Counted from the first letter of the stretch, positions 5,655-50,892 are shown. The stretch is 64,000 bases of DNA from an uncultured Defluviitaleaceae bacterium (GCA_964533945.1 CAZHPA010000006.1:157-64156); one strand, 5' to 3'. Notes: generated by a model not told the origin, from the letters alone. Numbers and translations are program-made.

Positions 5655-5804
5655 TTGAAATATGGGGTGGTACCGAACTTATAAGCTTACCTATATTTTT
5701 GCCCTAAATGTAAGATGGAAACAACAATCAGTGTTAAACAACTAAATGTTTTAGTTATCAAAGAGCCAGACCATAAGATGCAAAGCAAAGCGATAAACTG
5801 GTAA
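5655..5804 (+). pseudogene. Degraded cysteine-rich KTR-domain small-protein gene (3' part only, in-frame stop)
   Basis: Translation ..NL*AYLYFCPKCKMETTISVKQLNVLVIKEPDHKMQSKAINW* matches the remembered family pattern ..NFPLYCPKCKQETLI..IKEPDAKTQSR. The N-terminal CxxC half is absent. Confidence 0.55.
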
Positions 5805-5828: not shown

Positions 5829-6506
5829 TTGAAAAGAATTTTAATTATTGAAGATGACGAAAACCTAAGTCGTGGAATTGGCTTTTCATTTGAAAGCGAT
5901 GGTCATTTGGTGGTAACGGCAAACACACTTAAAGACGGAGAATTTGCTTTTGATAAAGGTGGTATTGATTGCATCATTCTTGATATTGGTCTGCCAGACG
6001 GAAGCGGACTGGATTTATGCAAGTATATTCGCCAAAAATCTGAAGTTCCAATTATTATGCTAACTGCATGTGACCTTGAAACAGATGAGGTGCAGGGGCT
6101 TAAATCGGGAGCTGATGATTATATTACCAAGCCTTTTTCATTATCTGTTTTAAAAGCAAGAGTGGAAGCGCTTTTTCGCCGTTTGGGCAAAGTAAAAAGT
6201 AATGTGTTAGAAATTTCAAAATACCGCCTAGACACATCGCTCTGTAAGTTTTTTATTAGTGGCACAGAAATACCTATTAGTGCAACTGAGTTTCGTTTGC
6301 TTCATTATTTAATGTCAAATGCAGGGCAAATTTTATCAAAGGAACAAATTCTTGCGTCACTTTGGGATAATGAAGGCAATTTTGTAGACGAGAACACTTT
6401 GTCGGTAAACATAAGCCGCCTTAGAGGAAAATTAGAAACTGACCCCAAAGCCCCAAAAGCAATTAAAACGATACACGGTATGGGCTATGTTTGGGTAAAG
6501 GAGTAA
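5829..6506 (+). CDS. OmpR-family DNA-binding response regulator
   Basis: 225 aa. Receiver domain (ILIIEDDE, ILDIGLPDGSG, KP motif) plus winged-helix output (..IKTIHGMGYVW). TTG start after an AAAGGAG SD. Confidence 0.9.
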   Translation: MKRILIIEDDENLSRGIGFSFESDGHLVVTANTLKDGEFAFDKGGIDCIILDIGLPDGSGLDLCKYIRQKSEVPIIMLTACDLETDEVQGLKSGADDYITKPFSLSVLKARVEALFRRLGKVKSNVLEISKYRLDTSLCKFFISGTEIPISATEFRLLHYLMSNAGQILSKEQILASLWDNEGNFVDENTLSVNISRLRGKLETDPKAPKAIKTIHGMGYVWVKE

Positions 6507-6511
6507 ACAAA

Positions 6512-7429
6512 ATGACTTATGTTATTATTTCGATTATTGCCTTATTGTTCTGTGTGTTGACTGTCTTATTATGCCGCTTGTATGTAAAACGAGCATTTGA
6601 CACAATCGACAAAACTCTTGATGGTATTTTAAATAAAAAACTAATACTGCCATCTTCCAAACTTGCTGATAATCGGATTTCAAAACTTAACCACAAGGCA
6701 TATCGTATTTTGGATATGTATGTATCTGATGCCGCTATTGCTAAAAATGAAAAGGAAACCATACAAGGCTTTATTTCGGATATGTCGCATCAAATGAAAA
6801 CACCTCTTTCCGGTATTTCTATGTATTCTGAGCTTTTGCTAAATAATAGCTTGCCAGAAACAGAAAGAAAGGAATTTTTGCTTAGAATTAAAAAACTTTC
6901 AGATAAAATGAAGTGGATTATGGACTGCCTGATTAAACTATCAAGGTTAGAGGTTGGCGCAATAGAGCTTAATCCCACAAACGCACCTGTAAATAAAACC
7001 GTTAAGGATGCTATTGGTAGCGTACTATCTATGGCAGCAAAGAAAGACATTAATATTATTGTAACGGATTTTAAAGAGTTAGAGCTTTACCATGACACAA
7101 AATGGACGACAGAAGTAATTACTAATCTTTTGGAAAATGCAATCAAATATTCATTGCAGGGTAGTACAATTGACATATCGGTCGAGTCACTTTCGTTATA
7201 TACAAAAATTGTAATAACCGATAACGGTATTGGTGTGCCAAAAGATGAGTTAAACAAAATTTTTAAACGATTTTATAGAGGTAAAAACACAAAGGAAATT
7301 GAAGGCGCAGGGCTTGGACTTTATCTTGCTGCACTTATTATGGAAAAACAGGGTGGGTATATTGCAGTTGATTCAAAGCAAGGCGAATTTACCTCCTTTT
7401 CGGTTTTCTTACAATGTTGTAAGAAATAA
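6512..7429 (+). CDS. Sensor histidine kinase with a single N-terminal TM anchor and no extracytoplasmic domain (intramembrane/transporter-dependent type)
   Basis: H-box FISDMSHQMKTPL. N, G1 and G2 boxes (LLENAIKYS, DNGIGVP, GAGLGLYL). Only one hydrophobic segment before HisKA. ATG at 6512 follows AAGGAG. Confidence 0.85.
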   Translation: MTYVIISIIALLFCVLTVLLCRLYVKRAFDTIDKTLDGILNKKLILPSSKLADNRISKLNHKAYRILDMYVSDAAIAKNEKETIQGFISDMSHQMKTPLSGISMYSELLLNNSLPETERKEFLLRIKKLSDKMKWIMDCLIKLSRLEVGAIELNPTNAPVNKTVKDAIGSVLSMAAKKDINIIVTDFKELELYHDTKWTTEVITNLLENAIKYSLQGSTIDISVESLSLYTKIVITDNGIGVPKDELNKIFKRFYRGKNTKEIEGAGLGLYLAALIMEKQGGYIAVDSKQGEFTSFSVFLQCCKK

Positions 7430-7523
7430 ATGAGATTTTGTAAGGTAGTTGTAAGAATTACGTCTTATAATAAAAAATATAAAGTCAATTATATATTTGA
7501 CTTAACGAAAGGAGTTAATGGGT

Positions 7524-7925
7524 ATGGCAATTTTAAAAACACAGGGACTTAAGAAACACTACGGAAAAGAAAATATCGTCCGCGCGCTTGATGGTGTTGA
7601 CATTGAAATTCATGCAGGTGAGTTTGTGGCTGTTGTTGGGCAGTCAGGTTCAGGAAAAAGTACATTGCTTCATATGCTTGGCGGTTTAGACAAACCGTCC
7701 ACTGGCAAAGTAATTGTTGACGGAAACGAGTTGTCGCAGATGAGCGATGAACAACTTACAATTTTTCGCCGACGCAATGTGGGTTTTGTTTTTCAAAACT
7801 ACAATCTCGTTCCGATTTTAAATGTATATGAAAACATTGTCTTACCCATTGAACTTGATGGCAATGCGGTTGACAAGGCTTTTGTAGATGAAATCATTAA
7901 TACGCTTGGGTTGGATGAAAAGAGT
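7524..7925 (+). CDS. ABC transporter ATP-binding protein, 5' segment (Walker A, Q-loop) upstream of the IStron insertion
   Basis: GQSGSGKSTLLHMLGG Walker A; FVFQNYNLVP..ENIVLP; ends ..TLGLDEKS. After that the ORF runs into unrelated sequence and stops at 7973. Confidence 0.85.
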
Positions 7926-8340
7926 TATTTAATAGTTATCAAAAACACACTTAAATATATTAAAACATATTGATAATTATACAAAGCTCTCATAGTACGG
8001 TGACGTGCTATGTTAAAACCACATCAAATACTAGTAATCCCTAAAGCTGCACTAACTACAACGTAAAGATGAAATAAGCTTAAGCGTGAATGTTGCGAAA
8101 GTAGAAAAAATAGTGCAGATGGCATAAGGTTAAATCCTAAGTGCTATAAAACAATGGGTCTTTAGTAGGATATGCCCGAACAGGGTACTCCTCAACGACT
8201 ATCCCGGCAGGGAGTAGGGGAAAGTTCCTCGAAACGAGTGGCTCTCATAAAAATATGAGATGATGAAATAGTCTGTGCTTATGCGAAAGTATAAGGAGTT
8301 CGTAAGAGAACCGGCAGTGATTAACGACCTCTGTTGAACA
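7926..8340 (+). ncRNA. Group I intron ribozyme core (5' module of the IStron)
   Basis: No ORF. P1: exon AGAGU (7921-25) with GCUCU (7986-90), giving U7925-G7986 wobble. P2 hairpin 7991-8012. P4: 8047-54 with 8111-18, in P/Q-like contexts AAAGCUGCACUAAC / AAUAGUGCAGAU. P3 candidate: 8038-43 with 8215-20. P7: GACUAU 8197-8202 with AUAGUC 8268-73, in R/S-like contexts UCAACGACUAUC / GAUGAAAUAGUCUG. P9 hairpin 8278-95 with a GAAA tetraloop, plus further GNRA-type loops. Confidence 0.65.
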
Positions 8341-8381
8341 ATTACCAAAAAAATATATAATTTATATTTTGTTTATTATAA

Positions 8382-8407
8382 AAGGCACAAAATTACTTTT
8401 GCGCCTT
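8382..8407 (-). terminator. Hairpin overlapping the RHH stop codon; possible terminator of the RHH transcript
   Basis: On the minus strand, AAGGCGCAAAA-GTAA-TTTTGTGCCTT forms an 11-bp stem followed by TTATAATAAAC. The U-tract is weak. Confidence 0.4.
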
Positions 8408-8551
8408 AGCAGCAAAATCCTTTAGAACAGTAATAACTAAATTATTGAAGCTCCGGTTTTGTTCTTTGGCTATACTTTCTAAAGTAGCCTTTAATTCTTT
8501 TGGAATTGTAAGCATTGTACGAGTATTATGTTCTGCTATGCTTCCAGCCAT
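8393..8551 (-). CDS. Ribbon-helix-helix (CopG/Arc/MetJ-like) DNA-binding protein, 52 aa, encoded antisense inside the IStron. Below the ORF-track size cut-off.
   Basis: Translation MAGSIAEHNTRTMLTIPKELKATLESIAKEQNRSFNNLVITVLKDFAAKAQK. This shows a beta-strand (RTMLTIP) followed by helix-helix, the pattern typical of RHH proteins. GAGGTG SD sits 5 nt upstream of the ATG. Confidence 0.7.
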   Translation of the reverse strand: MAGSIAEHNTRTMLTIPKELKATLESIAKEQNRSFNNLVITVLKDFAAKAQK

Positions 8552-8569
8552 ATTGTCACCTCAAATGTT

Positions 8570-8597
8570 ATTATACCATAATAAAAACTGTTGTCAA
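8570..8597 (-). promoter_or_regulatory. Sigma-A type promoter for the RHH gene (TTGACA-N16-TGgTATAAT)
   Basis: On the minus strand, the -35 TTGACA is the reverse complement of 8592-8597. The -10 TATAAT is the reverse complement of 8570-8575 and is preceded by a TG extended element. Confidence 0.5.
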
Positions 8598-8619
8598 TAT
8601 TTAATATAACTATTGACAA
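8591..8619. promoter_or_regulatory. Perfect inverted repeat TTGTCAATA-N11-TATTGACAA covering both divergent -35 boxes; candidate RHH operator
   Basis: Arms at 8591-8599 and 8611-8619 are exact reverse complements, and each arm contains a TTGACA -35 hexamer. Direct repeats TATGATAT at 8620-27 and 8631-38 (11-nt period) lie in the PtnpB spacer. Confidence 0.5.
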
Positions 8620-8641
8620 TATGATATCAGTATGATATAAT
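8613..8641 (+). promoter_or_regulatory. Consensus sigma-A promoter for tnpB (TTGACA-N17-TATAAT) internal to the IStron
   Basis: TTGACA 8613-18, 17-nt spacer, TATAAT 8636-41. GAGGTG SD at 8654-59, ATG at 8666. Confidence 0.55.
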
Positions 8642-8665
8642 AAGTATAGAAAGTGAGGTGAAACA

Positions 8666-9874
8666 ATGATTAAAGGACACAAAGTAAGATTGCTTCCAAC
8701 TGAAGAACAAGAAAAGCTTTTGTGGAAAAGTGTTAATGCTTCAAGGTTTGTATGGAATTGGGGTTTAGCTTTTCAAATGGATAGGTTTTCTAACGGTGAA
8801 AGTCATTTAAGTGGGTATGATTTAAGGAAGGTTTTAGTTCCTTTAAAGAAAACAGAAAAATTCAACTGGTTAAATGAAGTTTCTTCAAAAGTGTGTTCGC
8901 AAGGTTTATTGGATCTAGACACAGCATATAAAAAGTTCTTTAAAATCCAAAAAACAGGCGAAAAATTCACTAAGAAAGCTATTCAAAAAGCTAAGCGTAA
9001 AGGTAGAAAGTTAACACCTTATGATTTAAACGGACACCCAAAGTTTAAGTCTAAAAGAAAGGCAAAGCCAAGTTTTTATGTTACAGTAGATAATTTTTAT
9101 TTTAAAGACGGCAATGCAATTCTTGAAAAAATAGGCAAAATGCCTTACCAAACAACATACGAGCTACCACAAGGCAGAAATACTTGTAAATTTACTAATC
9201 CAAGAGTTTCATACGAAAATGGTAAATGGATTTTATCATTTGGTATGGACAGCAAAAACCAAGCTGAAACACTCAAAGATTATTCAGTTGGAATAGATTT
9301 AGGCGTAAAAGACTTAGCTGTTATTAGCTGTAATGGTGAAAAAACTGTATTTAAGAATATTAATAAAACTAAACGTGTAAGAAAACTAAAGAAACGTTTA
9401 AAACAATCACAACATAATGTAAGTCGAAAATATCATGCTAATGGCAAATATGACAAAACAAGCAATATTCTTAAAGCAGAGCAAAAACAAAAACAGCTAT
9501 ACATTAAGTTAAAAAATATTCGCAAAGATTATGCTCATAAAGTCACAACCAAGATAGTTAGGCTTCTTCCAAAAACGATTGTTATGGAAGACTTAAATGT
9601 ACAAGGTATGATGAAAAATGAACATCTTGCAGAAGCTATACAAGAACAATTGTTTTATGAGTTTTTACGGCAAATAGAATACAAATGCAGAGCTAAAGGC
9701 ATTACATTAATTCAGGCTAATAGATTCTACCCTAGTAGTAAAAAGTGTAGCCAATGCGGAAGTATTAAGCATAATCTAAAACTTAAAGACCGTAAATACA
9801 TATGCGAGCATTGTAATCTTGCTATAGACAGAGATTTTAACGCCGCAATCAATCTTGAAAAGTTAGCTTATTAA
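8666..9874 (+). CDS. tnpB: RNA-guided endonuclease TnpB (IS200/IS605-superfamily OrfB), apparently intact
   Basis: 402 aa. N-terminus KGHKVRLLPTEEQEKLL..RFVWNW. RuvC triad contexts GIDLGVKDLAV, IVMEDLNVQGM, AIDRDFNAAINL. Zinc ribbon CSQCGS..CEHCN. Confidence 0.92.
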   Translation: MIKGHKVRLLPTEEQEKLLWKSVNASRFVWNWGLAFQMDRFSNGESHLSGYDLRKVLVPLKKTEKFNWLNEVSSKVCSQGLLDLDTAYKKFFKIQKTGEKFTKKAIQKAKRKGRKLTPYDLNGHPKFKSKRKAKPSFYVTVDNFYFKDGNAILEKIGKMPYQTTYELPQGRNTCKFTNPRVSYENGKWILSFGMDSKNQAETLKDYSVGIDLGVKDLAVISCNGEKTVFKNINKTKRVRKLKKRLKQSQHNVSRKYHANGKYDKTSNILKAEQKQKQLYIKLKNIRKDYAHKVTTKIVRLLPKTIVMEDLNVQGMMKNEHLAEAIQEQLFYEFLRQIEYKCRAKGITLIQANRFYPSSKKCSQCGSIKHNLKLKDRKYICEHCNLAIDRDFNAAINLEKLAY

Positions 9875-10025
9875 AATTTTGAGAGTAAGTTAATTTTTGT
9901 GTAGGAAATTGCTATATCCGAATTTAAGCCTGTGGATAGCTATACCAAACACTATTAGCTACGCGAATGTGGGTTTTTTGAAACAGGAAATAAACAAAAC
10001 ATATATTTCTATATGTTTTTGGTAG
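9875..10025 (+). ncRNA. Omega-RNA-like scaffold / right end of the TnpB element (probably starts inside the tnpB 3' end)
   Basis: Lies directly 3' of tnpB. Conserved block GAATTTAAGCCTGTGGA..AGC..GAAACAGGAA is shared with the relic at 14430-14500. Terminal hairpin AAACATATA-TTTC-TATATGTTT at 9997-10018. Position and homology only; no covariance model was run. Confidence 0.5.
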
Positions 10026-10308
10026 CAGAAATAATCTCCCCAATATGCTTTCAGGCGGTCAACAACAGCGTGTGGCAATTGCAAGAGCTTTGGCAACAAA
10101 GCCGTCTATTATCCTAGCTGATGAACCGACTGGTAATCTCGACAGCAAAACAAGTCAAGATGTTTTAGGTGTTCTAAAAATGACTTCGAAAAAGTTTAAT
10201 CAAACCATTGTGATGATTACCCATAATGAGCAGATTGCTCAACTTGCCGACCGCGTTATTCATATTGAGGATGGCAAAGTAAAGGGCGGTGCAAATAATG
10301 AGAAATAA
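10026..10308 (+). CDS. ABC transporter ATP-binding protein, 3' segment (signature, Walker B, H-loop) downstream of the IStron
   Basis: In-frame (S)RNNLPNMLSGGQQQRVAIARALATKPSIILADEPTGNLDS...MITHN. It has no start codon or SD of its own in a sensible position. Confidence 0.85.
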
Positions 10309-12829
10309 CAATGCCGCCATTATACGAAAAATTGCAGGGCGCACCCTGTCTTCTGATAAAAAGCGTAATATCATGGCTATTTGTGCAATTACCCTCACGG
10401 CTGTGCTGTTTACTACCTTATTTACTCTGGGTATCGGCAGCATAGATATGTTCCAAAAGGCTACCATGCGACAGTCAGGTTCAAGCGCTCATGCAGTGAT
10501 AAATTATATTGATGATGAAGAATTTGAAAAAATAAGCAAACACCCTCTGGTAAAGGAAATTGCCTATACACGTATCTTGAGCGACAGCGTAGATAACCCA
10601 GAACTGCTAAAGAGACATGGCGAACTCTGGTACATGGACGATAACGGACTAAAGCAAGGTTTTTATGAGCCTATTGCAGGGAATAGACCTGTTGCTGAAA
10701 ACGAAATCATGATGGACACAAAAACAATGCTATTGTTGAAACTACCCCAACAAATCGGTGCAAAGGTAAAGCTTGTATTAACGATACATGGAAATCAAAT
10801 TGAGAGAGACTTTGTGCTATCTGGCTGGTGGGAAAGCGACCCAGCCTTCAATGCGAGTATTTTAATTACTTCAAAAGCATATATTGACAGGCATATCAAG
10901 GAACTTGTCGTTACTTATGATGATGACTATTCCCTTGTTGGTTTAATTAACGCAAATATACGTTTTAGTAATTCATTTAATATGCAAGCAAAACTTGATC
11001 GTGTAATATTGGAAAGCGGCTTTGATGGAGTGAACAAGAATGCCCCAAACTATGTTGACGGTAATATAAATTGGGCTTATCTTTCAACAACCACGGGAGG
11101 CGACCCCATAACTACAGCTGCCATGTTTGTTGCCCTTATGTTGGTAGCTTTTACAGGATATTTAATTATTTACAATATATTTCAAATTTCAGTATTGCGT
11201 AATATTCGTTACTATGGATTACTGAAAACCATCGGAGCCACAGGGCGACAAATTAAAAACATCATCACCTTGCAAGCAACAGTACTTTCTCTGATTGGCA
11301 TACCAATTGGGCTTGCGTTGGGATATACTGTAGGTACCAAGCTTGTTCCAATGGTTTTGGCACAAACAGATTTTACAGGAACGACTTCAGAATTATCGGC
11401 AAACCCCATTATTTTTATAGCCTCTGCCGTATTTGCATGGATAACTGTGTGCATTTCCACACGCAAGCCTGGGAAAATTGCTGCAAAGGTTTCGCCTATG
11501 GAAGCAATACGATACACCGATTCCGATGTGGGCAACAAAAGAACAATGAAACGCTCTACTAATGGTGGAAAGCTTTACAAAATGGCGCTATTTAATTTGG
11601 GAAGGACTAAAAAACGCACTGCTTTGGTATTCATCTCCTTGTCATTAAGTTTAGTATTACTAAACTGCGTATTTACCTTATCTCAAGGTATGGATATGGA
11701 CAAATTTTTATCCAAATTTGTTGACAATGATTTTTTAATTGCTCATGCTAATTATTTTAATAGCCATTATTTTGGTACTGAAAGTGCCGTGGAAGAAAGT
11801 ATAATTACAAATATGGAAGCGCAGCCGGGGTTTGAGGCTGGTGGAAGACTTTACAAAACTAACAATGAATATTTTACAGTAGAGGACTCTAACAATCAGA
11901 ATAAATATAATCAAGGCCATGACAGCCACCAAATTGCTGATGTTTACGGTCTAGATGACCTACCGCTTGAACGGTTAGAAGTTATAGAAGGAGAGCTTGA
12001 TATTGAGAAGTTAAAATCCGGCGGCTATATCTTAGTAGGAGTTAACATCGATGATTTTGGTAAACCAGAAGCAGCCAAATTTAATGTAGGCGATACAGTT
12101 ATTTTACACAATTACCACATGCAAAGCTCTAACATATTAGATAAGGAGTATACGACCCAAGTATATGAGGTGCTTGCTATCGTGAAGATTAACTACTTTT
12201 CCAATTCAAATCGAACATGGAGTAGTTACACATTTTACATGCCATCAAGTATTTATCTTCCTCTCACGTACGAAAAAACAATTATGAGTTATACGTTCAA
12301 TGTCGCAGATGAATTAGAAGAGCATGTGGAGTCATTCTTGAAGTATTACACAGAAAATGAAGAACCGCTGATGCATTACGAATCAAAAGAGACCCATGTA
12401 AAAGAATTTATGGGTATGCGAAACTTAATTCTTTCTATTGGCAGCATATTGAGCGGTATTATTGGATTAATTGGTATACTGAATCTTATAAACACTGTGT
12501 TCGCCAGCGTAATCACGCGTCGTCAAGAGTTTGCTATGTTACAGAGTATTGGCATGACGAAAAGACAGCTTAGAAATATGCTCTGTTTAGAGGGGCTTTA
12601 CTATGCAGTTGGAACAATAATTGTTTCGTTTGTGTTAGGGGTTTTAAGTTCACATTTCATTATCCGAATATTAATGAGTGGATTGTGGTTTGTAACCTAT
12701 CAGTTTATTGTTTTGCCGCTTATAATATGTTGGCCAATTTTTTTCCTAATATCATTGTTTATTCCTATTATAATTTTTAACGGAAGTATGAAAGAAAGTG
12801 TAGTGGAGCGTTTGAGGGAAGTAGAATGA
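10298..12829 (+). CDS. FtsX/MacB-type ABC transporter permease with large extracytoplasmic domains
   Basis: About 843 aa. N-terminus MRNNNAAIIRKIAGRTL is typical of this permease family. Two FtsX-like TM bundles (..YGLLKTIGATGRQI.. and ..FAMLQSIGMTKRQL..). Its start overlaps the ATPase stop. An alternative GTG lies at 10289. Confidence 0.85.
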   Translation: MRNNNAAIIRKIAGRTLSSDKKRNIMAICAITLTAVLFTTLFTLGIGSIDMFQKATMRQSGSSAHAVINYIDDEEFEKISKHPLVKEIAYTRILSDSVDNPELLKRHGELWYMDDNGLKQGFYEPIAGNRPVAENEIMMDTKTMLLLKLPQQIGAKVKLVLTIHGNQIERDFVLSGWWESDPAFNASILITSKAYIDRHIKELVVTYDDDYSLVGLINANIRFSNSFNMQAKLDRVILESGFDGVNKNAPNYVDGNINWAYLSTTTGGDPITTAAMFVALMLVAFTGYLIIYNIFQISVLRNIRYYGLLKTIGATGRQIKNIITLQATVLSLIGIPIGLALGYTVGTKLVPMVLAQTDFTGTTSELSANPIIFIASAVFAWITVCISTRKPGKIAAKVSPMEAIRYTDSDVGNKRTMKRSTNGGKLYKMALFNLGRTKKRTALVFISLSLSLVLLNCVFTLSQGMDMDKFLSKFVDNDFLIAHANYFNSHYFGTESAVEESIITNMEAQPGFEAGGRLYKTNNEYFTVEDSNNQNKYNQGHDSHQIADVYGLDDLPLERLEVIEGELDIEKLKSGGYILVGVNIDDFGKPEAAKFNVGDTVILHNYHMQSSNILDKEYTTQVYEVLAIVKINYFSNSNRTWSSYTFYMPSSIYLPLTYEKTIMSYTFNVADELEEHVESFLKYYTENEEPLMHYESKETHVKEFMGMRNLILSIGSILSGIIGLIGILNLINTVFASVITRRQEFAMLQSIGMTKRQLRNMLCLEGLYYAVGTIIVSFVLGVLSSHFIIRILMSGLWFVTYQFIVLPLIICWPIFFLISLFIPIIIFNGSMKESVVERLREVE

Positions 12830-12854: not shown

Positions 12855-13030
12855 ATTGGATATTATGCCCTATCTGCAAGAGTAAACCGCATACTAAAAT
12901 TCGAGATGATATGTAACTTATAAACTTCCCTCTGCTTTGCCCAAGTAACAAGCAGGAAAACCTTATTAGTGTTCAATAGCTAAATATTTTAATTATCAAA
13001 GAGCGGGGCGCTAAGACACAGAACCTATAA
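12855..13030 (+). pseudogene. Degraded cysteine-rich KTR-domain small-protein gene (multiple in-frame stops)
   Basis: Translation WILCPICKSKPHTKIRDDM*LINFPLLCPSNKQENLISVQ*LNILIIKERGAKTQNL retains the CPxC..KIRxD..NFPL.CP..IKE..AKTQ pattern, but with stops and lost cysteines. Confidence 0.6.
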
Positions 13031-14270: not shown

Positions 14271-14585
14271 ATTTACAATACTTTGTATTGACTTTTGTTT
14301 TGCTAATTATTATAATAATTATTAGGCAAAAACCAAGCCTTAAAAAATGTTTTATCAACAGTTTGTTCTGTTGTATAGCTAGAATATCACAATAAAAGAT
14401 ACTAGCTATGTGTACGCAACGATACTGCGGAATTTAAGCCTGTGGAGCGTTATAACAAATGAGAGTAGCTTTGGCAAAACCAGACGCATTGAAGCAGGAA
14501 GGTACAGAACGAAAAACCGAAAGGTATAAGTCGTATCACAGTATAAATGTCTACATTTTGTTAGAAATGTATGTGTTTTTCGTAT
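14271..14585 (+). mobile_element. Relic mini-derivative of the 8.6-10.0 kb element: operator/promoter remnant plus omega-RNA-like scaffold, no tnpB
   Basis: CAATAC-TTT-GTATTGAC (14276-14292) resembles the CAATA..TATTGAC operator. TTGACT-N17-TATAAT at 14288-14316. TGTGTA..GAATTTAAGCCTGTGGAGCG..AGTAGCT..GAAGCAGGAAG (14410-14500) parallels 9922-9990. The end GTGTTTTTCGTAT parallels ATGTTTTTGGTAG. Confidence 0.45.
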
Positions 14586-14780
14586 CGGAACGGTTATTAT
14601 AAAGCCGCTTGGCGAAGGAAATGGCTACGAAATAGTCGATAAATTACAACTAAATAATATAACATAATTATATAATTAAATGCTTTATATAAGACAAGGC
14701 GCTTTAAACCTTGTCTTTTTTGTTTAGTTCTTCTAAAAAACTGCTACACCAAATTTGCTGTTAAGCATTAGAAGCGGCGG

Positions 14781-32850: not shown

Positions 32851-33590
32851 AGCAGCCAACCACCCCAAACTTAGCTAGAAGCTTGTAGCTAATATTTAAA
32901 TTACCGCGTACGGCTAATTGACTGCAGCCCTTCGGATATTTTAAGAAGCAGTGTTGTCTGCAGATGCGAAGTATCTACAAGCAACACAAATAAACTTATT
33001 ACGAGTTTTACGATTCTTTTTATCTATATGCCCACAATTTGGGCAAGTTCTTGAAGTGTTTCTAGGGTCTACAAAAACAATAGGCACTCCTATTATTTTT
33101 GCTTTATATTCTATAAACTGACGCAATTGATAAAATGCCCAAGAAGAATGTTTTAATCTCTGCGCCTTTTTAACCGTTTTCTCAGTACGTGTGCGTATTC
33201 CTTTTAAATCTTCTAAAGGCTATACCACATTGAGTGCCTTTGGCTTTTAAAACAATCTTTTTTGATATGATATGGTTAATATCTTTAGCAAAACTTTTTT
33301 CTTTTTTACTTCTCTTTTTAAGAAGACGTTTTGCAGATTTTGTACCTTTAGCTTGAAGCTTTTGGCGAAGTTTATTATGTCTTTTGCGAATAGAATTTAG
33401 TTTACTTCCCGAAAATACTTCTTCTGTGCTGTCAACAGAGCTTCTAATAAAATTTTAAAAATATTACGGCTTCCTCCTTGCGGCTAAAGATTGGGCTTTA
33501 GCTGTTGAAATGTTGTGGTAACATATTCGCCCACCTAAAGGGGCGAGAGAATTCCTCACGGTGGTTAAAACCATTTAAGTTAATACCTTG
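32851..33590 (-). pseudogene. tnpB: Decayed TnpB element: 3' half of tnpB with frameshift and in-frame stops, its tail, and an upstream TTTAG-loop hairpin
   Basis: Minus-strand translation ..GIALEDLKGIRTRTEK..(frameshift)..SSWAFYQLRQFIEYKAKIIGVPIVFVDPRNTSRTCPNCG..FICVACRYFASADNTAS*NIRRAAVN*. The N-terminal half is missing. Hairpin at 33527-46. Confidence 0.7.
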
Positions 33591-41884: not shown

Positions 41885-43855
41885 ATGCGTAAAAAAGCTT
41901 TAATAACAGCAGGCATTGTTGGCGTTGCTGCAATTTTTATAGGAATTGGAGTTTTTAATACTTTAAGGCAACAGCAAGCTTCAAAAACTCCTAAAAATGC
42001 TTTTCCGGTTGAAATTGAACAACCACACAAAGAAGACATTGTAACAAAGGTTACAGCAAAAGGAGCCGTCGAGCTTGTTAAGAAAAATACAGTTTATGCA
42101 ACATCGCAAGGGAAAATTAAAACGCTCTTTGTTAAAGTGGGAGATGGCGTTAAAAAAGGTCAAGTTCTTTTAGAATATGATGAAAAAGGGCTTGAAGATT
42201 TAAATAATCAGCTTGAAGAAGCAAATTTATCGCTAAAAGCTGCCGAGCTTTCTCTTGAATCTGTAACGCTTCCTCCAACTCAAGCGGAAATTACAGCTGC
42301 CGAATCTAAAGTTAAAACAGCGGAAAAAAACGTTTCCGATTTAGAATATCAAAGAACGCAGCAAATTACAACTATAGACCAACTAAACCGTGACATTAAA
42401 GCGGCAGAAAAAAAACACGAAGAAGCTTTAGCCAAAAAAGAAACAACAACGAAAAAAGCAGTTGAAGATGTTGAATATCAAATATCTTTACAAGACACAC
42501 AAATAGCACAACTTAAACGTGACATTGAATCAACGCAAAAGAAGTATGATGAAACGTTAGTTAAAAAAGAAACAACAATGAAAAAAGCTGTTGAAGATGT
42601 CGAATATCAAATATCACAGCAAGACGCTCAAATAGCACAAACCGAGCGTGATGTTGAGTTAACAGAAAGCAAATACAACGATACAAAAGCACTTGTTGAA
42701 AAAGGAGTTTTAGCAAAACGTGAGCTTGACAGCTTAGAGCAATCGCTTACAGCTTTAAAAGATAAATTGGAAACAACACAAACGCAACGCCTTAAAACAT
42801 TAAAAATGCTTAATGATAAAGAAGAACTTGATGCTGTTTTGATAGTTAAGAAAGAACTTGACAGCTTGAGCGAAACGCTTAAAACCCTTAAAGACAATTT
42901 AGGAACAGCCCAAAAGCAAAGAGATAAAGCTGCAAAATCGCTTAATGACAAAGAAGAACTTGATGCCGTTTTAGTAGTTAAAAGAGAAATTGACACTTTA
43001 GCTGATACAATTAAAACATTAAAAGACCAACTAAACTCGGCACAGTTGCAGCTTAATAAAGTTATAGAATCAATTCAATCTGCAAGAGAAACTGTTGATT
43101 CTGCAAAAAAAGAATATAATTCACTATCAAATAAGCAAACAGAACCAACTGTTGTTAATCGCACAGAACAACAACAAATTCAAGTTGACCAAGCTACATT
43201 GAGAGTTGAGCAAATTAAAAAGAAAATCGACGAGTTTAAATTACAAGAAGTTTCAGATGTTGAAGGAGCAATAATGCAAATATATACACAAGAAGGCGAC
43301 AATTCTGTTGTTGGAAAGCAACTTATGGAAGTTGCTGATTTATCATTCGGAAACCTTGTAATTAAAGTTAACATTCCCGAAAACAGAACATCTTCAATAG
43401 CAGCAGGGCAAAAAGTTGAACTTAGCGGAGAGGCATTAGGAAAAAATACTTATGAAGGCGTAATTAGCAAAGTATACCCTATTGCAGAAAAGAAGCAAAT
43501 TGGTAATTCTGTAGAAACCGTTACAACTGTTGAAGTTTCGCTTTTAGAAGAAAACGAACATATTAAGCCAGGCTATAATATCGAAACATCAATTGTAACA
43601 AATACTTTGCAAGATGCTGTTGTTATTCCAATTATGGCAACACGAACAGATGAAGACGGAAAAGACTTTGTGTATGTTATGAACGAAGACTTCAGCGTTT
43701 CTAAGCGTGAAATTACATTAGGGGAATATTCAAACATCTACGTTCAAGCTTCAGGAATCGAATTGGAAGACAAAGTTATTATAACTAACGCCCCTCAAGT
43801 TGTTGAAGGCTCGTATGTTAGACCTATGACGATGCCGGGCGAAGAGGGGAAATAG
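41885..43855 (+). CDS. Efflux transporter periplasmic-adaptor (MacA/HlyD family) protein with a greatly expanded coiled-coil hairpin
   Basis: N-terminal TM. Lipoyl/barrel motifs (..VKVGDGVKKGQVLLEYD.., ..GQKVELSGEALG..YEGVISKVYP..). Internal triplicated 42-aa and 43-aa repeats (see findings). Confidence 0.8.
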   Translation: MRKKALITAGIVGVAAIFIGIGVFNTLRQQQASKTPKNAFPVEIEQPHKEDIVTKVTAKGAVELVKKNTVYATSQGKIKTLFVKVGDGVKKGQVLLEYDEKGLEDLNNQLEEANLSLKAAELSLESVTLPPTQAEITAAESKVKTAEKNVSDLEYQRTQQITTIDQLNRDIKAAEKKHEEALAKKETTTKKAVEDVEYQISLQDTQIAQLKRDIESTQKKYDETLVKKETTMKKAVEDVEYQISQQDAQIAQTERDVELTESKYNDTKALVEKGVLAKRELDSLEQSLTALKDKLETTQTQRLKTLKMLNDKEELDAVLIVKKELDSLSETLKTLKDNLGTAQKQRDKAAKSLNDKEELDAVLVVKREIDTLADTIKTLKDQLNSAQLQLNKVIESIQSARETVDSAKKEYNSLSNKQTEPTVVNRTEQQQIQVDQATLRVEQIKKKIDEFKLQEVSDVEGAIMQIYTQEGDNSVVGKQLMEVADLSFGNLVIKVNIPENRTSSIAAGQKVELSGEALGKNTYEGVISKVYPIAEKKQIGNSVETVTTVEVSLLEENEHIKPGYNIETSIVTNTLQDAVVIPIMATRTDEDGKDFVYVMNEDFSVSKREITLGEYSNIYVQASGIELEDKVIITNAPQVVEGSYVRPMTMPGEEGK

Positions 43856-48985: not shown

Positions 48986-50686
48986 ATGCACATGACGCAA
49001 AGGAAAACGGCAATTTTAACTTTAGTTTTAACCTTATCTTTTTCAATAACTACTTTTGCCGCTGATGCTTCACAGGCAGCGGCAAATGCTTCAAGATTTG
49101 GCATTTTCACAATTCTACCCCCTCTAATTGCTATAGCATTGGCATTTATTACTAAAAATGTAATTATTTCACTCTTTCTTGGTTCTCTCACAGGTTTCTT
49201 CATAATTAATATCGCCGACAAAAATATTTTTTCCGCATTAATAGGTTCATTTCTAAGTTTTATTCAAGCAGCGCTTTATTCACTGGCAGATAGCTGGAAC
49301 GCCGGAATTATTTTGCAAGTTTTAGTAATAGGCGGTGTTGTTGCGCTTGTTTCAAAAATGGGCGGTGCTAAAGCTGTTGCAGAAGCAATTGTTAAAAAGG
49401 CAAAGTCTCCCGTTAGCACTCAAATTGCAACATTTTTACTAGGGCTTTTAGTTTTCTTTGATGATTACGCAAATGCTTTAATTGTTGGACCTATAATGCG
49501 CCCAATATATGATAAAATGAAAATCTCAAGAGAAAAACTTGCATTTGTTGTTGATGCAACAGCTGCTCCAATTGCCGGAATTGCAATTATTTCAACGTGG
49601 ATTGGATTAGAAATTAGCTTAATTCGTTCGGCATATGCTTCAAGTGGACAAGAGGTTGACGCTTTCGGTATTTTCCTTAAAACAATACCATACAGATTTT
49701 ATAACATATTTATGCTTGTTTTTGTAGTTTTAACAGCTGTTATGATGCGTGAATTTGGACCTATGCTTAAAGCAGAAATTAGAGCAAGAAAAGGCGAAAA
49801 ATCTAAAACGCCGGCAATCGGTCAAGGCGACTTTCAAGATATGGAGCCAAAAGAAGGCATTAAACCAAGCATATTAAATGCAGTTATTCCAATTGGAACG
49901 CTTATTGTTGCATCCCTTTTAAGCTTCTATTTTTCAGGGCGCGAGGCGCTTTTTGCAGAAGGTGATGAAGCACTTATTGCTCTTGTTACACAAAATCCGT
50001 TTTCGTTGCGCGCATTGCAAGAATGTGTTGGAATGGCAGATGCTTCGGTTGCGCTTTTTCAATCGGCGTTGTTTGCAGCTATAGTTGCTATTATTATGGC
50101 AATATCCAAAAAAATATTTACACTTACAGAAAGTATAGAAGTTTTTATTAGCGGCATGAAGAATTTGCTTGTTACAGGCGTTATTTTAATTTTGGCGTGG
50201 AGTTTAAGTTCTGTAATTAAGGAATTGGGAACAGCAGCGTTTTTAGTTGAAAATTTATCGGATAAAGTGCCGTATTTCATATTGCCGTCGTTTATATTTG
50301 TTTTAGGCTCTATTATATCGTTTTCAACGGGTACTGCCTATGGAACAATGGGCATTATGATGCCGCTTGCCGTGCCGTTTGCAATAGCTATTAACCCTGA
50401 TTTAAGTTACACAGTTGTTTGCACTTCGGCTGTTTTAACAAGCGCTATTTTTGGCGACCATTGTTCTCCTATTTCAGACACAACAATTTTATCTTCAATG
50501 GGCTCTTCTTGCAACCATATGGACCACGTTAATACACAAATGCCATATGCACTATTTGTTGCAGGAGTTGCAATTACTTTAGGATATTTACCAGCGGGGT
50601 TTGGCATTTCGTGGTTTATACTTTTACCTGTTGGAATATTAGCTTTAATTGGGCTTTTAAGAGTGTTTGGGAAGAAAGTTGTTTAA
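48986..50686 (+). CDS. Na+/H+ antiporter NhaC family protein
   Basis: ATG 48986 after AAAGGAGG. Polytopic, with ..FFDDYANALIVGP.. and ..GDHCSPISDTT.. motifs typical of NhaC-type transporters. Confidence 0.85.
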   Translation: MHMTQRKTAILTLVLTLSFSITTFAADASQAAANASRFGIFTILPPLIAIALAFITKNVIISLFLGSLTGFFIINIADKNIFSALIGSFLSFIQAALYSLADSWNAGIILQVLVIGGVVALVSKMGGAKAVAEAIVKKAKSPVSTQIATFLLGLLVFFDDYANALIVGPIMRPIYDKMKISREKLAFVVDATAAPIAGIAIISTWIGLEISLIRSAYASSGQEVDAFGIFLKTIPYRFYNIFMLVFVVLTAVMMREFGPMLKAEIRARKGEKSKTPAIGQGDFQDMEPKEGIKPSILNAVIPIGTLIVASLLSFYFSGREALFAEGDEALIALVTQNPFSLRALQECVGMADASVALFQSALFAAIVAIIMAISKKIFTLTESIEVFISGMKNLLVTGVILILAWSLSSVIKELGTAAFLVENLSDKVPYFILPSFIFVLGSIISFSTGTAYGTMGIMMPLAVPFAIAINPDLSYTVVCTSAVLTSAIFGDHCSPISDTTILSSMGSSCNHMDHVNTQMPYALFVAGVAITLGYLPAGFGISWFILLPVGILALIGLLRVFGKKVV

Positions 50687-50892
50687 TACATAAAAACAAA
50701 AAACCTATCGGATTTTAAAATTACAATGCTTTTGTTTGCTGAATCTTAAGTTTTTAAAAGTATTTGGGGGAAAAGTTGTTTAATACATAAAAGCAAAAAA
50801 CTTATTGGGTTTTAAAGTTGTAGTGCTTTTGCTTGTTTGGAAAAAAGATTTAACACATAAAAATAATGCTGTCGGGTTTATCGACAGCATTT
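50664..50892 (+). repeat. Three degenerate tandem copies of the nhaC 3' end plus terminator region
   Basis: TTTGGGaAgAAAGTTGTTTAATACATAAAAaCAAAAAAC.. at 50664 recurs at 50762 and, truncated, at 50833. Each copy ends in a hairpin. Confidence 0.6.
50865..50891. terminator. Bidirectional Rho-independent terminator between nhaC (+) and the rny operon (-)
   Basis: AATGCTGTCG-GGTTTAT-CGACAGCATT. T-rich tracts follow on both strands (ATTATTTTTAT on the minus strand). Confidence 0.65.

Follow-up and report, generated by a model that had tools for sequence, protein, structure and literature searches.

IStrons, in which a group I intron is joined to an insertion sequence (IS), offer the clearest example in nature of a single RNA acting as ribozyme, guide RNA and transposon end. 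An element of this type is described here from a 64,000-nucleotide (nt) stretch of DNA of an uncultured Defluviitaleaceae bacterium (GCA_964533945.1 CAZHPA010000006.1:157-64156), where it interrupts the ATPase gene of an ATP-binding cassette (ABC) transporter. The whole stretch that was analysed is referred to as the window, and positions are counted from its first letter.

The closest described systems are the group B IStrons. These splice after G, as demonstrated experimentally for BcISt1, with a shifted U.G pair, and a 3′ direct repeat accompanies their long AU-rich inverted repeat stem (PMC4227781). P7.1/P7.2 and an extended P9, the hallmarks of subgroup IA2, are stated for all IStrons, and many described group B members are without ORF A, whose loss is frequent in ones that are still spreading (PMC4227781). 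CsISt1, an exception to the group B rule, has ORF B only, sits after AG and ends in CAG (PMC4227781). A core dinucleotide common to both ends is the behaviour of serine-recombinase IS607 elements (bioRxiv 10.1101/2023.11.20.567912, section 6). For CboIStron of C. botulinum BKT015925, splicing, homing by TnpB and an antagonism between splicing and omegaRNA have been published (bioRxiv 10.1101/2023.11.20.567912; PMC13521648), and alternative pairing of the 3′ arm, a published group B arrangement, is the structural basis of this splicing/guide antagonism (PMC4227781; PMC13521648). IS607 TnpBs use RAGATH-18-derived RNAs as guides, with AGGAG or GAGGG as transposon-adjacent motif (TAM) (PMC11061315). 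Among the accessory genes of IStrons, Arc-like open reading frames (ORFs) are a newly reported kind, with no role assigned to them (bioRxiv 10.1101/2023.11.20.567912, section 5).

The comparison leads us to read positions 7925-10028 of the window, with a probability of roughly 0.85, as a non-autonomous group B (IS607-family) IStron, inserted in sense orientation at AAGAG/AAATAAT in the ATPase gene of a response regulator-histidine kinase-ABC-FtsX cassette (Table 1). As in the group B IStrons (PMC4227781), a subgroup IA2-like intron with P7.1/P7.2 and extended P9 forms the 5′ end and is followed by ORF B (TnpB) in the same orientation, the last base of the 5′ exon is G and the U.G pair is displaced by one position, there is no target duplication, and a long AU-rich inverted repeat stem surrounds the ORFs, its 3′ arm being immediately preceded by a direct repeat. 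The element also resembles CsISt1, compared here by its description, in having ORF B only, lying after AG, ending in CAG and measuring ~2.1-2.4 kb. An antisense Arc-like gene sets it apart from the elements of the 2014 group B survey, where no such gene is described (PMC4227781).

A clean insertion in the ABC ATPase gene

The cassette lies on the + strand in the order response regulator (5829-6506), histidine kinase (6491-7429), ABC ATPase in two pieces, and FtsX-type permease (10289-12829, 846 aa). An earlier note on this DNA, made without database searches, had described the ATPase gene as split by a clean, co-oriented insertion, and it is: the Pfam pieces are co-linear on the + strand, and position 7924 joined to 10029 gives a 228-codon ORF that matches the family sequence exactly. 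Both ATPase exons and the downstream permease are intact ORFs. A search with the ATPase as joined in that note found thousands of uninterrupted homologues (best 87% identity). Alignment of the flanks to such homologues, a check proposed there, shows that the two halves do join at this site, without the additional Ser created by the join at 7925/10026. All 16 aligned uninterrupted homologues read LGLDEK-RNNLPNMLSGGQQQRV (LGLDEK-RNNLPNM), one residue fewer than in that join. The insert length of 2101 nt given there is thus to be corrected to 2104 nt, with boundaries 1-3 nt away. In the closest uninterrupted gene for which DNA is available (L087), which shares the synteny of response regulator, histidine kinase, ABC ATPase and FtsX-type permease, the site reads GATGAAAAGCG/AAACAATCTCCCCAATATGC. 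Of note, the insert can equally be written as 7923-10026, with AG at both junctions (7923-7924 and 10027-10028). The right boundary is supported by two Clostridium lentum copies of a related element that part company exactly at ...CACCAG.

The top-scoring match to the joined ATPase is P0001 (NCBI, 350 aa, on a 3.6-kb contig), in which ATPase segments are internally duplicated. This is possibly a mis-assembled or a tandemly duplicated gene.

A subgroup IA2-like group I ribozyme

In blastn searches, positions 7995-8355 showed homology with Twort-like phage introns as well as with the intron regions that lie 5′ of tnpB in several loci, among them ones of C. botulinum, C. difficile and Paenibacillus. 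Nine homologous sequences were aligned and folded with RNAalifold, with P7 added by hand. The consensus yields P3, P4, P5 with a long extension, P6, P7.1, P7.2, P8, P9 and P9.1. Standard pairs occupy 95.8% of the pair cells in the nine sequences vs 34-43% after sliding of partners, and compensatory changes are found in 49 of 79 pairs; none of 500 shuffles reached the observed values. Locus L004 displays a double compensatory change in P7 (GAUCA/UGAUC). The conserved core, with helices P3-P8, the P3/P7 pseudoknot and J8/7, has covariation support. The window sequence retains 71/74 consensus pairs and 5/5 in P7, i.e., 76/79, and the unconstrained single-sequence minimum free energy (MFE) structure of the mini-IStron recovers the same helices as the consensus. 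The extended P9 is present as well, with P9, P9.1 and the inverted repeat stem all in this MFE structure. Anatomy, homology and covariation support that the 5′ part of the insert is, as judged from its sequence, a subgroup IA2-like group I ribozyme.

The Twort-like introns of Staphylococcus and Bacillus phages, also of subgroup IA2, have the same P3-P9, with 72-80% nucleotide identity in the core over 150-330 nt, and are recognised by the Rfam group I model RF00028. They differ in being short, free-standing or accompanied by homing endonucleases, in having no IS ends, tnpB or omegaRNA, and in splicing after U. Related loci were searched for with nhmmer and the ribozyme core alignment, in place of a full-intron covariance model.

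P1, the target site and the element ends

The predicted 5′ splice site follows G7924, and the U7925.G7986 wobble pair is shifted by one to lie inside the intron. The alternative in which U7925 is the last exon base, giving a canonical U.G site, was rejected: every terminal-G 3′ site then leads to a frameshift or stop, and the homologues exclude extra bases.

Across related elements, the internal guide, made up of the four bases directly 5′ of P2, changes in step with the target (GGAG/CUCC, GAGG/CCUC and GGG/CCC; AGAG/CUCU in the window). Seventeen related elements were compared, some of which are the same copy re-sampled from different collections. With re-sampled copies counted, 11 elements have the site NGGAG and the right end CAG; the other six follow NNGGG or NGAGG, and the right end is CGG in 5/5 for which it is in hand. 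The window element is the sole case with A at position -4, and unlike its closest relatives with NGGAG it has the matching compensatory change to CUCU in its guide. AAGAG, a possible TAM of the window TnpB, is one mismatch (-4) from the AGGAG TAM class.

At the right end, the window sequence ...AUAUGUUUUUGGUAGCAG aligns with ...UUUUUAGCA(U/C)CAG or ...UUUU(U/A)(A/U)G(C/U)AACGG of relatives (L004, L005, L006, L070, L085 and L086). The left neighbour of the element is AAGAG and its terminus GCAG, and no target duplication is found. Pairing of 7934-7946 with the right end was also considered for the inverted repeat stem. At -18.6 kcal/mol it is weaker than that of the 5′ arm listed in Table 1 (-23 kcal/mol), whose position matches the published one.

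In the fold of the mini-element, the exons near the junction are complementary to each other (7907-7916 with 10034-10042, UGGG..GGAU with AUCU.CCCA); this may be chance or may help to bring the exons together. L006 and L070, from Clostridium lentum NSJ-42, are two copies of one related IStron. One copy interrupts a PAP2 phosphatase gene within its conserved SR...H...D motif, which is restored when the copy is removed precisely. In the other copy, tnpB is split and the left end contains a short duplication.

TnpB, omegaRNA and the IS family

The tnpB gene is intact, with its three Pfam domains and catalytic residues present. Among solved structures the best match of the protein is 8iaz (E 2e-54), to which the RuvC residues D211, E308 and D388 and the zinc finger CSQCG/CEHCN (CxxC...CxxC) align. 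The PDB record names this chain just "Transposase"; we take it to be the structure of the ISFba1 IS607 TnpB. The TAM-contact residues differ (in our numbering of the 8iaz chain, offset +3): the equivalent of Lys83 in 8iaz is Ser in the window protein, and the alignment does not include the Asn61/62 pair. One database entry is identical to the window TnpB (P0121), and the nearest non-self match is 65% identical.

As with the ISFba1-type IS607 TnpBs (PMC11061315), to which the RuvC triad and zinc finger align, a RAGATH-18 motif is found downstream of tnpB and outside the ORF, and the window flank AAGAG, a putative TAM, ends in AG like the TAM class AGGAG; ISFba1, in contrast to the window element, is not reported as intron-associated (PMC11061315). 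The would-be guide, placed according to TnpB/omegaRNA biology (PMC11061315; bioRxiv 10.1101/2023.11.20.567912), is the start of exon 2.

CboIStron, an element validated by experiment, has the same order of parts, with target, ~10 nt, extension hairpin, internal guide and P2 with a GUGA loop, followed at the right end by the omegaRNA, whose scaffold/guide boundary is the 3′ splice site. In both elements the -3 nucleotide is G in the target and C in the scaffold end (TGGG vs TCGG in CboIStron, AGAG vs GCAG in the window), and in CboIStron this difference (UCGG vs TGGG) prevents self-cutting (bioRxiv 10.1101/2023.11.20.567912, section 7). However, CboIStron encodes the serine recombinase TnpA (TnpA_S) and has a GG core and a TGGG TAM, whereas the window element has no TnpA, an AG core and an AAGAG target. 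The two TnpBs are just 40% identical, and the terminal omegaRNA stem loop is shorter in the window, with 39 nt after RAGATH-18 vs ~55-90 nt.

No serine recombinase TnpA was detected in the element or in the 64-kb window (tblastn best E 0.9). Likewise the element, with arc and tnpB as its sole ORFs, has no Y1 TnpA gene, and there is no tyrosine transposase in the window. With no serine TnpA, the copy is thus considered non-autonomous. A survey was made of 134 related loci with at least 600 nt upstream of tnpB, 25 of them with a TnpB at least 50% identical and 109 more distant. TnpA_S adjoins tnpB in 79 of the 134. Where the TnpB is at least 50% identical, an intron is found in 21/25 loci and TnpA_S in 2/25; among the more distant relatives it is TnpA_S that is frequent (77/109), and introns are found in 6/109. 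By the sequence of its TnpB, the window element falls in a subclade where IStrons as a rule have TnpB only.

The IS part is assigned to the IS607 family, and the element to the group B IStrons and not to IS200/IS605, because of the RAGATH-18 omegaRNA, the best match to 8iaz, the serine TnpA of relatives, the AG/CAG ends and the AU-rich inverted repeat stem. The earlier note had proposed an IStron of the IS200/IS605 superfamily. The IStron is borne out by homology, covariation, domains and boundaries, and the family membership is not. Also upheld are its statements that ~415 nt of ORF-free, structured, group I intron-like sequence (homology, covariation, fold) precede an intact tnpB and an omegaRNA-like tail (RAGATH-18 at 48 bits), and that the copy is non-autonomous, there being no Y1 or serine tnpA in the window.

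Two other traces of such elements were seen in the window. An orphan IS607 right end with omegaRNA is located 4.4 kb downstream (14408-14588, with 14288-14316, + strand) and has a RAGATH-18 score of 71.6 bits. Over 181 nt it shares 83% identity with the CboIStron omegaRNA (C. botulinum BKT015925), and it has the same ...TATCGG end. A promoter-like site (TTGACT-17-TATAAT) lies ~90 nt upstream; neither tnpB nor left-end homology was found upstream of the orphan, and nothing else in the window matches its would-be guide AACGGTTATTATAAAGCCGC. The orphan could be what is left of a decayed element, or could act as a stand-alone guide for the IStron TnpB in trans. A second, different TnpB is present in fragments (…GVPIVFVDPRNTSRTCPNCGHIDKKNRKTRNKFICVACRY…) with frameshifts and stops at ~32900-33400 on the - strand, between an ABC-2-type permease ORF and an SbcC-like gene, with no adjoining RAGATH-18 motif.

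An antisense Arc-like gene and divergent promoters

Between the ribozyme and tnpB, on the opposite strand, is an ORF similar to PHROG 582, "Arc-like repressor" (E 3.8e-9). The match to Pfam RHH_5 is weak (20 bits, E 6e-4, under the 26-bit cut-off). Homologues occupy the same place upstream of tnpB in L005, L019 and L116. This gene and two internal consensus promoters had been missed in the earlier note. The promoters diverge, and a dyad holds the -35 boxes of both. The motif ATATTGTCA/TGACAATAT is present three times (8550, 8592 and 8614), and L005 and L019 have dyads of their own between arc and tnpB. The dyad and triple motif are likely the Arc operator; most likely the Arc-like protein binds the dyad over both -35 boxes and represses itself and tnpB.

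Proposed life cycle

The window copy is best explained by the IStron life cycle as published, and it is by this analysis that we infer splicing, nuclease activity and repression. In the operon transcript, the 5′ ~420 nt would fold into the IA2-like ribozyme, with P1 formed by the exon end AGAG and the internal guide CUCU. The AU-rich stem would loop out 1.65 kb of IS genes and bring the terminal G10028 to the core. Guanosine-initiated self-splicing would join ...GAAAAGAG to AAAUAAU... and restore the ATPase frame (LGLDEK/RNNLPNMLSGGQ), with the expected spliced junction GAAAAGAG/AAATAATC, also written GAAAAGAG/AAATAATCTCC. The tnpB transcript, from its own consensus promoter, would carry the RAGATH-18 omegaRNA with the first ~20 nt of exon 2 as guide. 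By homology to ISFba1 and CboIStron, TnpB would cut an empty AAGAG + AAATAATCTCCCCAATATGC site, and recombination would re-install the element (homing, maintenance). Transposition to a new site would need a serine-recombinase TnpA in trans. Since the 3′ splice site cuts the guide off from its scaffold, splicing and omegaRNA maturation should be mutually exclusive, and the U-run at the right end would pair either in the terminal omegaRNA stem loop or with the intron 5′ inverted repeat arm.

Several observations weigh against this reading. With RF00028, no group I match was found at the gathering score in the whole window, nor at E<=10 in 7850-10100. When 7960-8345 alone (386 nt) was used, the model aligned in full length to 7987-8295 with 32.7 bits (E 9.5e-7), the gathering score being 50, and this check, also suggested in the earlier note, is therefore ambiguous. 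The controls gave 95-104 bits for Staphylococcus phage introns and 70 bits for the Paenibacillus IStron L003; the silence of the model is considered a problem of its sensitivity, because L001, an IStron-like locus on a C. botulinum plasmid, was missed too. The omegaRNA stretch by itself folds no better than shuffles (z -0.4), and the omegaRNA call thus rests on the covariance-model match. All 11 related elements that end in CAG have NGGAG, from which the target AAGAG deviates at position -4. With ISFba1, cleavage was lost upon any single change of the TAM, so the window TnpB may not recognise the AAGAG site. A convergent antisense gene and a strong internal promoter inside the intron could lower read-through and splicing. 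Finally, the element is a singleton, both in an exact search of metagenome and viral contigs with its right-end 23-mer and in TnpB-based locus searches. No second copy or same-species empty site was found in these, the closest relatives being 65% (protein) and 59-63% (loci) identical, and recent mobility therefore cannot be shown.

Alternative explanations

Among the alternatives, a role in homing only should be considered, although we regard it as doubtful: the element may effectively be a group I intron with TnpB-omegaRNA as its homing endonuclease, spread by cleavage of empty alleles and recombination, with no role for TnpA. The absence of a TnpA_S match in the window, the prevalence of introns over TnpA_S in the subclade with TnpB at least 50% identical and the frequent loss of ORF A in group B IStrons that still spread (PMC4227781) are all compatible with it. 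However, a left-end motif of IS607 type (AATAGTTATCAAAAAC) and adherence to the core-dinucleotide rule, as expected for recognition by a serine recombinase, are retained at the ends, and related elements are found in many unrelated genes, which needs transposition to new sites, beyond homing. The remaining genome outside the window could also encode a TnpA.

It is unlikely that the insertion is dead, i.e., that it has IStron anatomy and splices poorly or not at all in its host, leaving the ATPase a functional pseudogene and the cassette off. Possible causes would be the non-consensus target, antisense arc transcription, or occlusion of the 3′ splice site by TnpB/omegaRNA. The splicing efficiency of published IStron copies ranges down to ~2% (bioRxiv 10.1101/2023.11.20.567912), TnpB with stable omegaRNA represses splicing (bioRxiv 10.1101/2023.11.20.567912; PMC13521648), and both the strong internal promoters and the singleton state of the element would agree with such an end. 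Yet the ribozyme retains all conserved core motifs besides nearly all its consensus pairs, tnpB and arc are intact, as are the exons and the permease, and the change to CUCU in the guide restores pairing to the unusual AGAG exon end, as expected under selection for splicing.

We give little credence to a third possibility, that an Arc-controlled switch inside the intron, and not RNA stability alone, decides expression of the host transporter. At low Arc, strong transcription of tnpB/omegaRNA and antisense transcription of arc over the 5′ inverted repeat arm would favour the nuclease/guide state and block splicing; at high Arc, both internal promoters would be off, and read-through RNA from the host promoter could fold and splice. 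In a weaker variant, the orphan CboIStron-like omegaRNA at 14408-14588 may be loaded in trans by the window TnpB.

Finally, an IS200/IS605-type (group A, CdISt1-like) IStron, moved by a Y1 (tyrosine) TnpA through single-stranded hairpin ends, is very improbable: TnpB proteins are common to both IS families, the two IStron groups have introns of the same subgroup (PMC4227781) and NCBIfam IS200_TnpB scores higher than IS607_TnpB, both under cut-off, but RAGATH-18 omegaRNA is reported solely with IS607 TnpBs (PMC11061315), the best solved relative is the one presumed above to be an IS607 TnpB, relatives carry serine and not Y1 TnpA, group A elements sit after TTGAT/ATTAT/TTTAT and end in TCAG (PMC4227781) where this one has AAGAG and GCAG, and a 5′ exon that ends in G (U in group A) together with the long AU-rich inverted repeat stem are group B traits.

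Other features of the cassette and the window

Just 5′ of the TATAAT box that precedes the ATPase gene, positions 7410-7460 contain CTTACA/TGTAAG repeats (cttacaatgttgtaag ... tgtaaggtagttgtaag). These are probably a binding site of the response regulator, which would make the operon and the IStron-containing transcript inducible. The cassette is bracketed by an 81-nt direct repeat (70% identity; 5698-5778 and 12936-13016). The two copies translate as the C-terminal halves of small Cys-rich ORFs (CPxC...CPKCK...VIKEPD), with a stop in the downstream copy, and look like paralogous small genes rather than element ends. A repeat scan also showed a tandem 132-nt repeat (73% identity) at 42722-42985 and, at 50655-50835, two repeats of 84 nt that share 83% identity and lie 97 nt apart.

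Table 1. Positions of the IStron, its parts and the interrupted ATPase gene in the window.
Feature	Position	Strand	Description and evidence
ATPase exon 1	7524..7924 (start alternatively 7518)	+	Walker A, Q-loop; 3′ end ...GAT GAA AAG AG; Pfam ABC_tran 1-96; alignment to uninterrupted homologues
Target/TAM-like motif AAGAG	7920..7924	+	adjoins left end; ends in the core dinucleotide AG, which recurs at right end
P1 (predicted)	7921..7990	+	exon end AGAG + UU (7921-7926) pairs with AGCUCU (7985-7990); unconstrained mini-IStron MFE
Whole IStron	7925..10028	+ (co-oriented with host gene)	2104 nt; homologue alignment, left/right-end alignment to relatives, C. lentum copies
Ribozyme region (predicted)	7925-~8340	+	~415-420 nt, ORF-free, structured, subgroup IA2-like
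P1 extension hairpin	7932-7942 with 7970-7980	+	AU-rich; enclosed by P1
Internal guide CUCU	7987-7990	+	pairs with 5′ exon end AGAG
P2 hairpin	7991..8012	+	9 bp, GUGA tetraloop; mini-IStron folds; aligns to first hairpin of RF00028
Ribozyme core	8019..8311	+	blastn homology, RNAalifold, covariation counts, MFE, RF00028 32.7 bits
P3	8019-8025/8236-8241	+	ribozyme core
P4	8029-8034/8162-8167	+	ribozyme core; P5, P5 extension and P6 also in core
P7	8197-8201/8269-8273	+	ribozyme core
P7.1 and P7.2	8202-8213 and 8217-8230	+	consensus helices between P7 and P3′
P8	8243-8260	+	ribozyme core; J8/7 is GAUGAAAUAGUC
P9	8278-8295	+	GAAA loop; ribozyme core
P9.1	8298-8311	+	ribozyme core
Inverted repeat stem, 5′ arm	8343..8357	+	AU-rich (UACCAAAAAAAUAUA); RNAduplex -23 kcal/mol; mini-IStron MFE
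Putative Arc-like ribbon-helix-helix ORF	8393..8551	-	52 aa; antisense to intron and tnpB; between ribozyme and tnpB
Divergent promoter region	8570..8641	both	each promoter 12/12 consensus + TG extension
arc promoter	8597-8570	-	12/12 consensus, TG extension
Dyad	8591-8603/8607-8619		holds -35 boxes of both promoters
tnpB promoter	8613-8641	+	12/12 consensus, TG extension
tnpB	8666..9874	+	402 aa, intact; Pfam HTH_OrfB_IS605 + OrfB_IS605 + Cas12f1-like_TNB; NCBIfam guided_TnpB 283 bits
omegaRNA (right-end element RNA, reRNA) scaffold (predicted)	9885..10028	+	ends GCAG; 5′ limit ~9885 approximate, by analogy with ISFba1 (PMC11061315)
RAGATH-18 core (RF03064)	9929-9989	+	48.0 bits vs gathering 44.9; 55 nt after tnpB stop, outside ORF
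Partial 3′ direct repeat	9992-10005	+	AAACAAAACAUAUA; can instead pair with 3′ arm, forming last omegaRNA stem loop
Terminal omegaRNA stem loop	9995-10021	+	folds
Inverted repeat stem, 3′ arm	10010-10024	+	pairs with 8343-8357, enclosing IS genes
G10028	10028	+	predicted intron terminal G and 3′ splice site
Would-be omegaRNA guide	10029..10048	+	first 20 nt of exon 2; occurs once in window
ATPase exon 2	10029..10308	+	signature LSGGQ, Walker B, H-loop; Pfam ABC_tran 106-136; alignment to uninterrupted homologues

Significance

All of the architectural features of the window IStron have published precedent (splicing after G, AG/CAG ends, AU-rich stem, Arc-like ORF, RAGATH-18 guide, and the state with ORF B only), and the current understanding of IStrons is unchanged by this copy. 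It adds a divergent member to them, whose TnpB shows no more than 65% identity to its non-self matches in the protein collection, and it comes from a subclade where the combination of intron and TnpB, with no transposase, is the rule. The off-consensus target AAGAG and the CUCU of the ribozyme internal guide are a natural compensatory pair, and the Arc-like gene with its divergent promoters is an unusually clean module for probing the function of Arc-like ORFs. There are also consequences for annotation: RF00028 at its gathering score misses such introns, and a transporter gene may be functional although annotated as two pseudogene fragments. If the IStron splices, the resistance-type cassette would stay functional.

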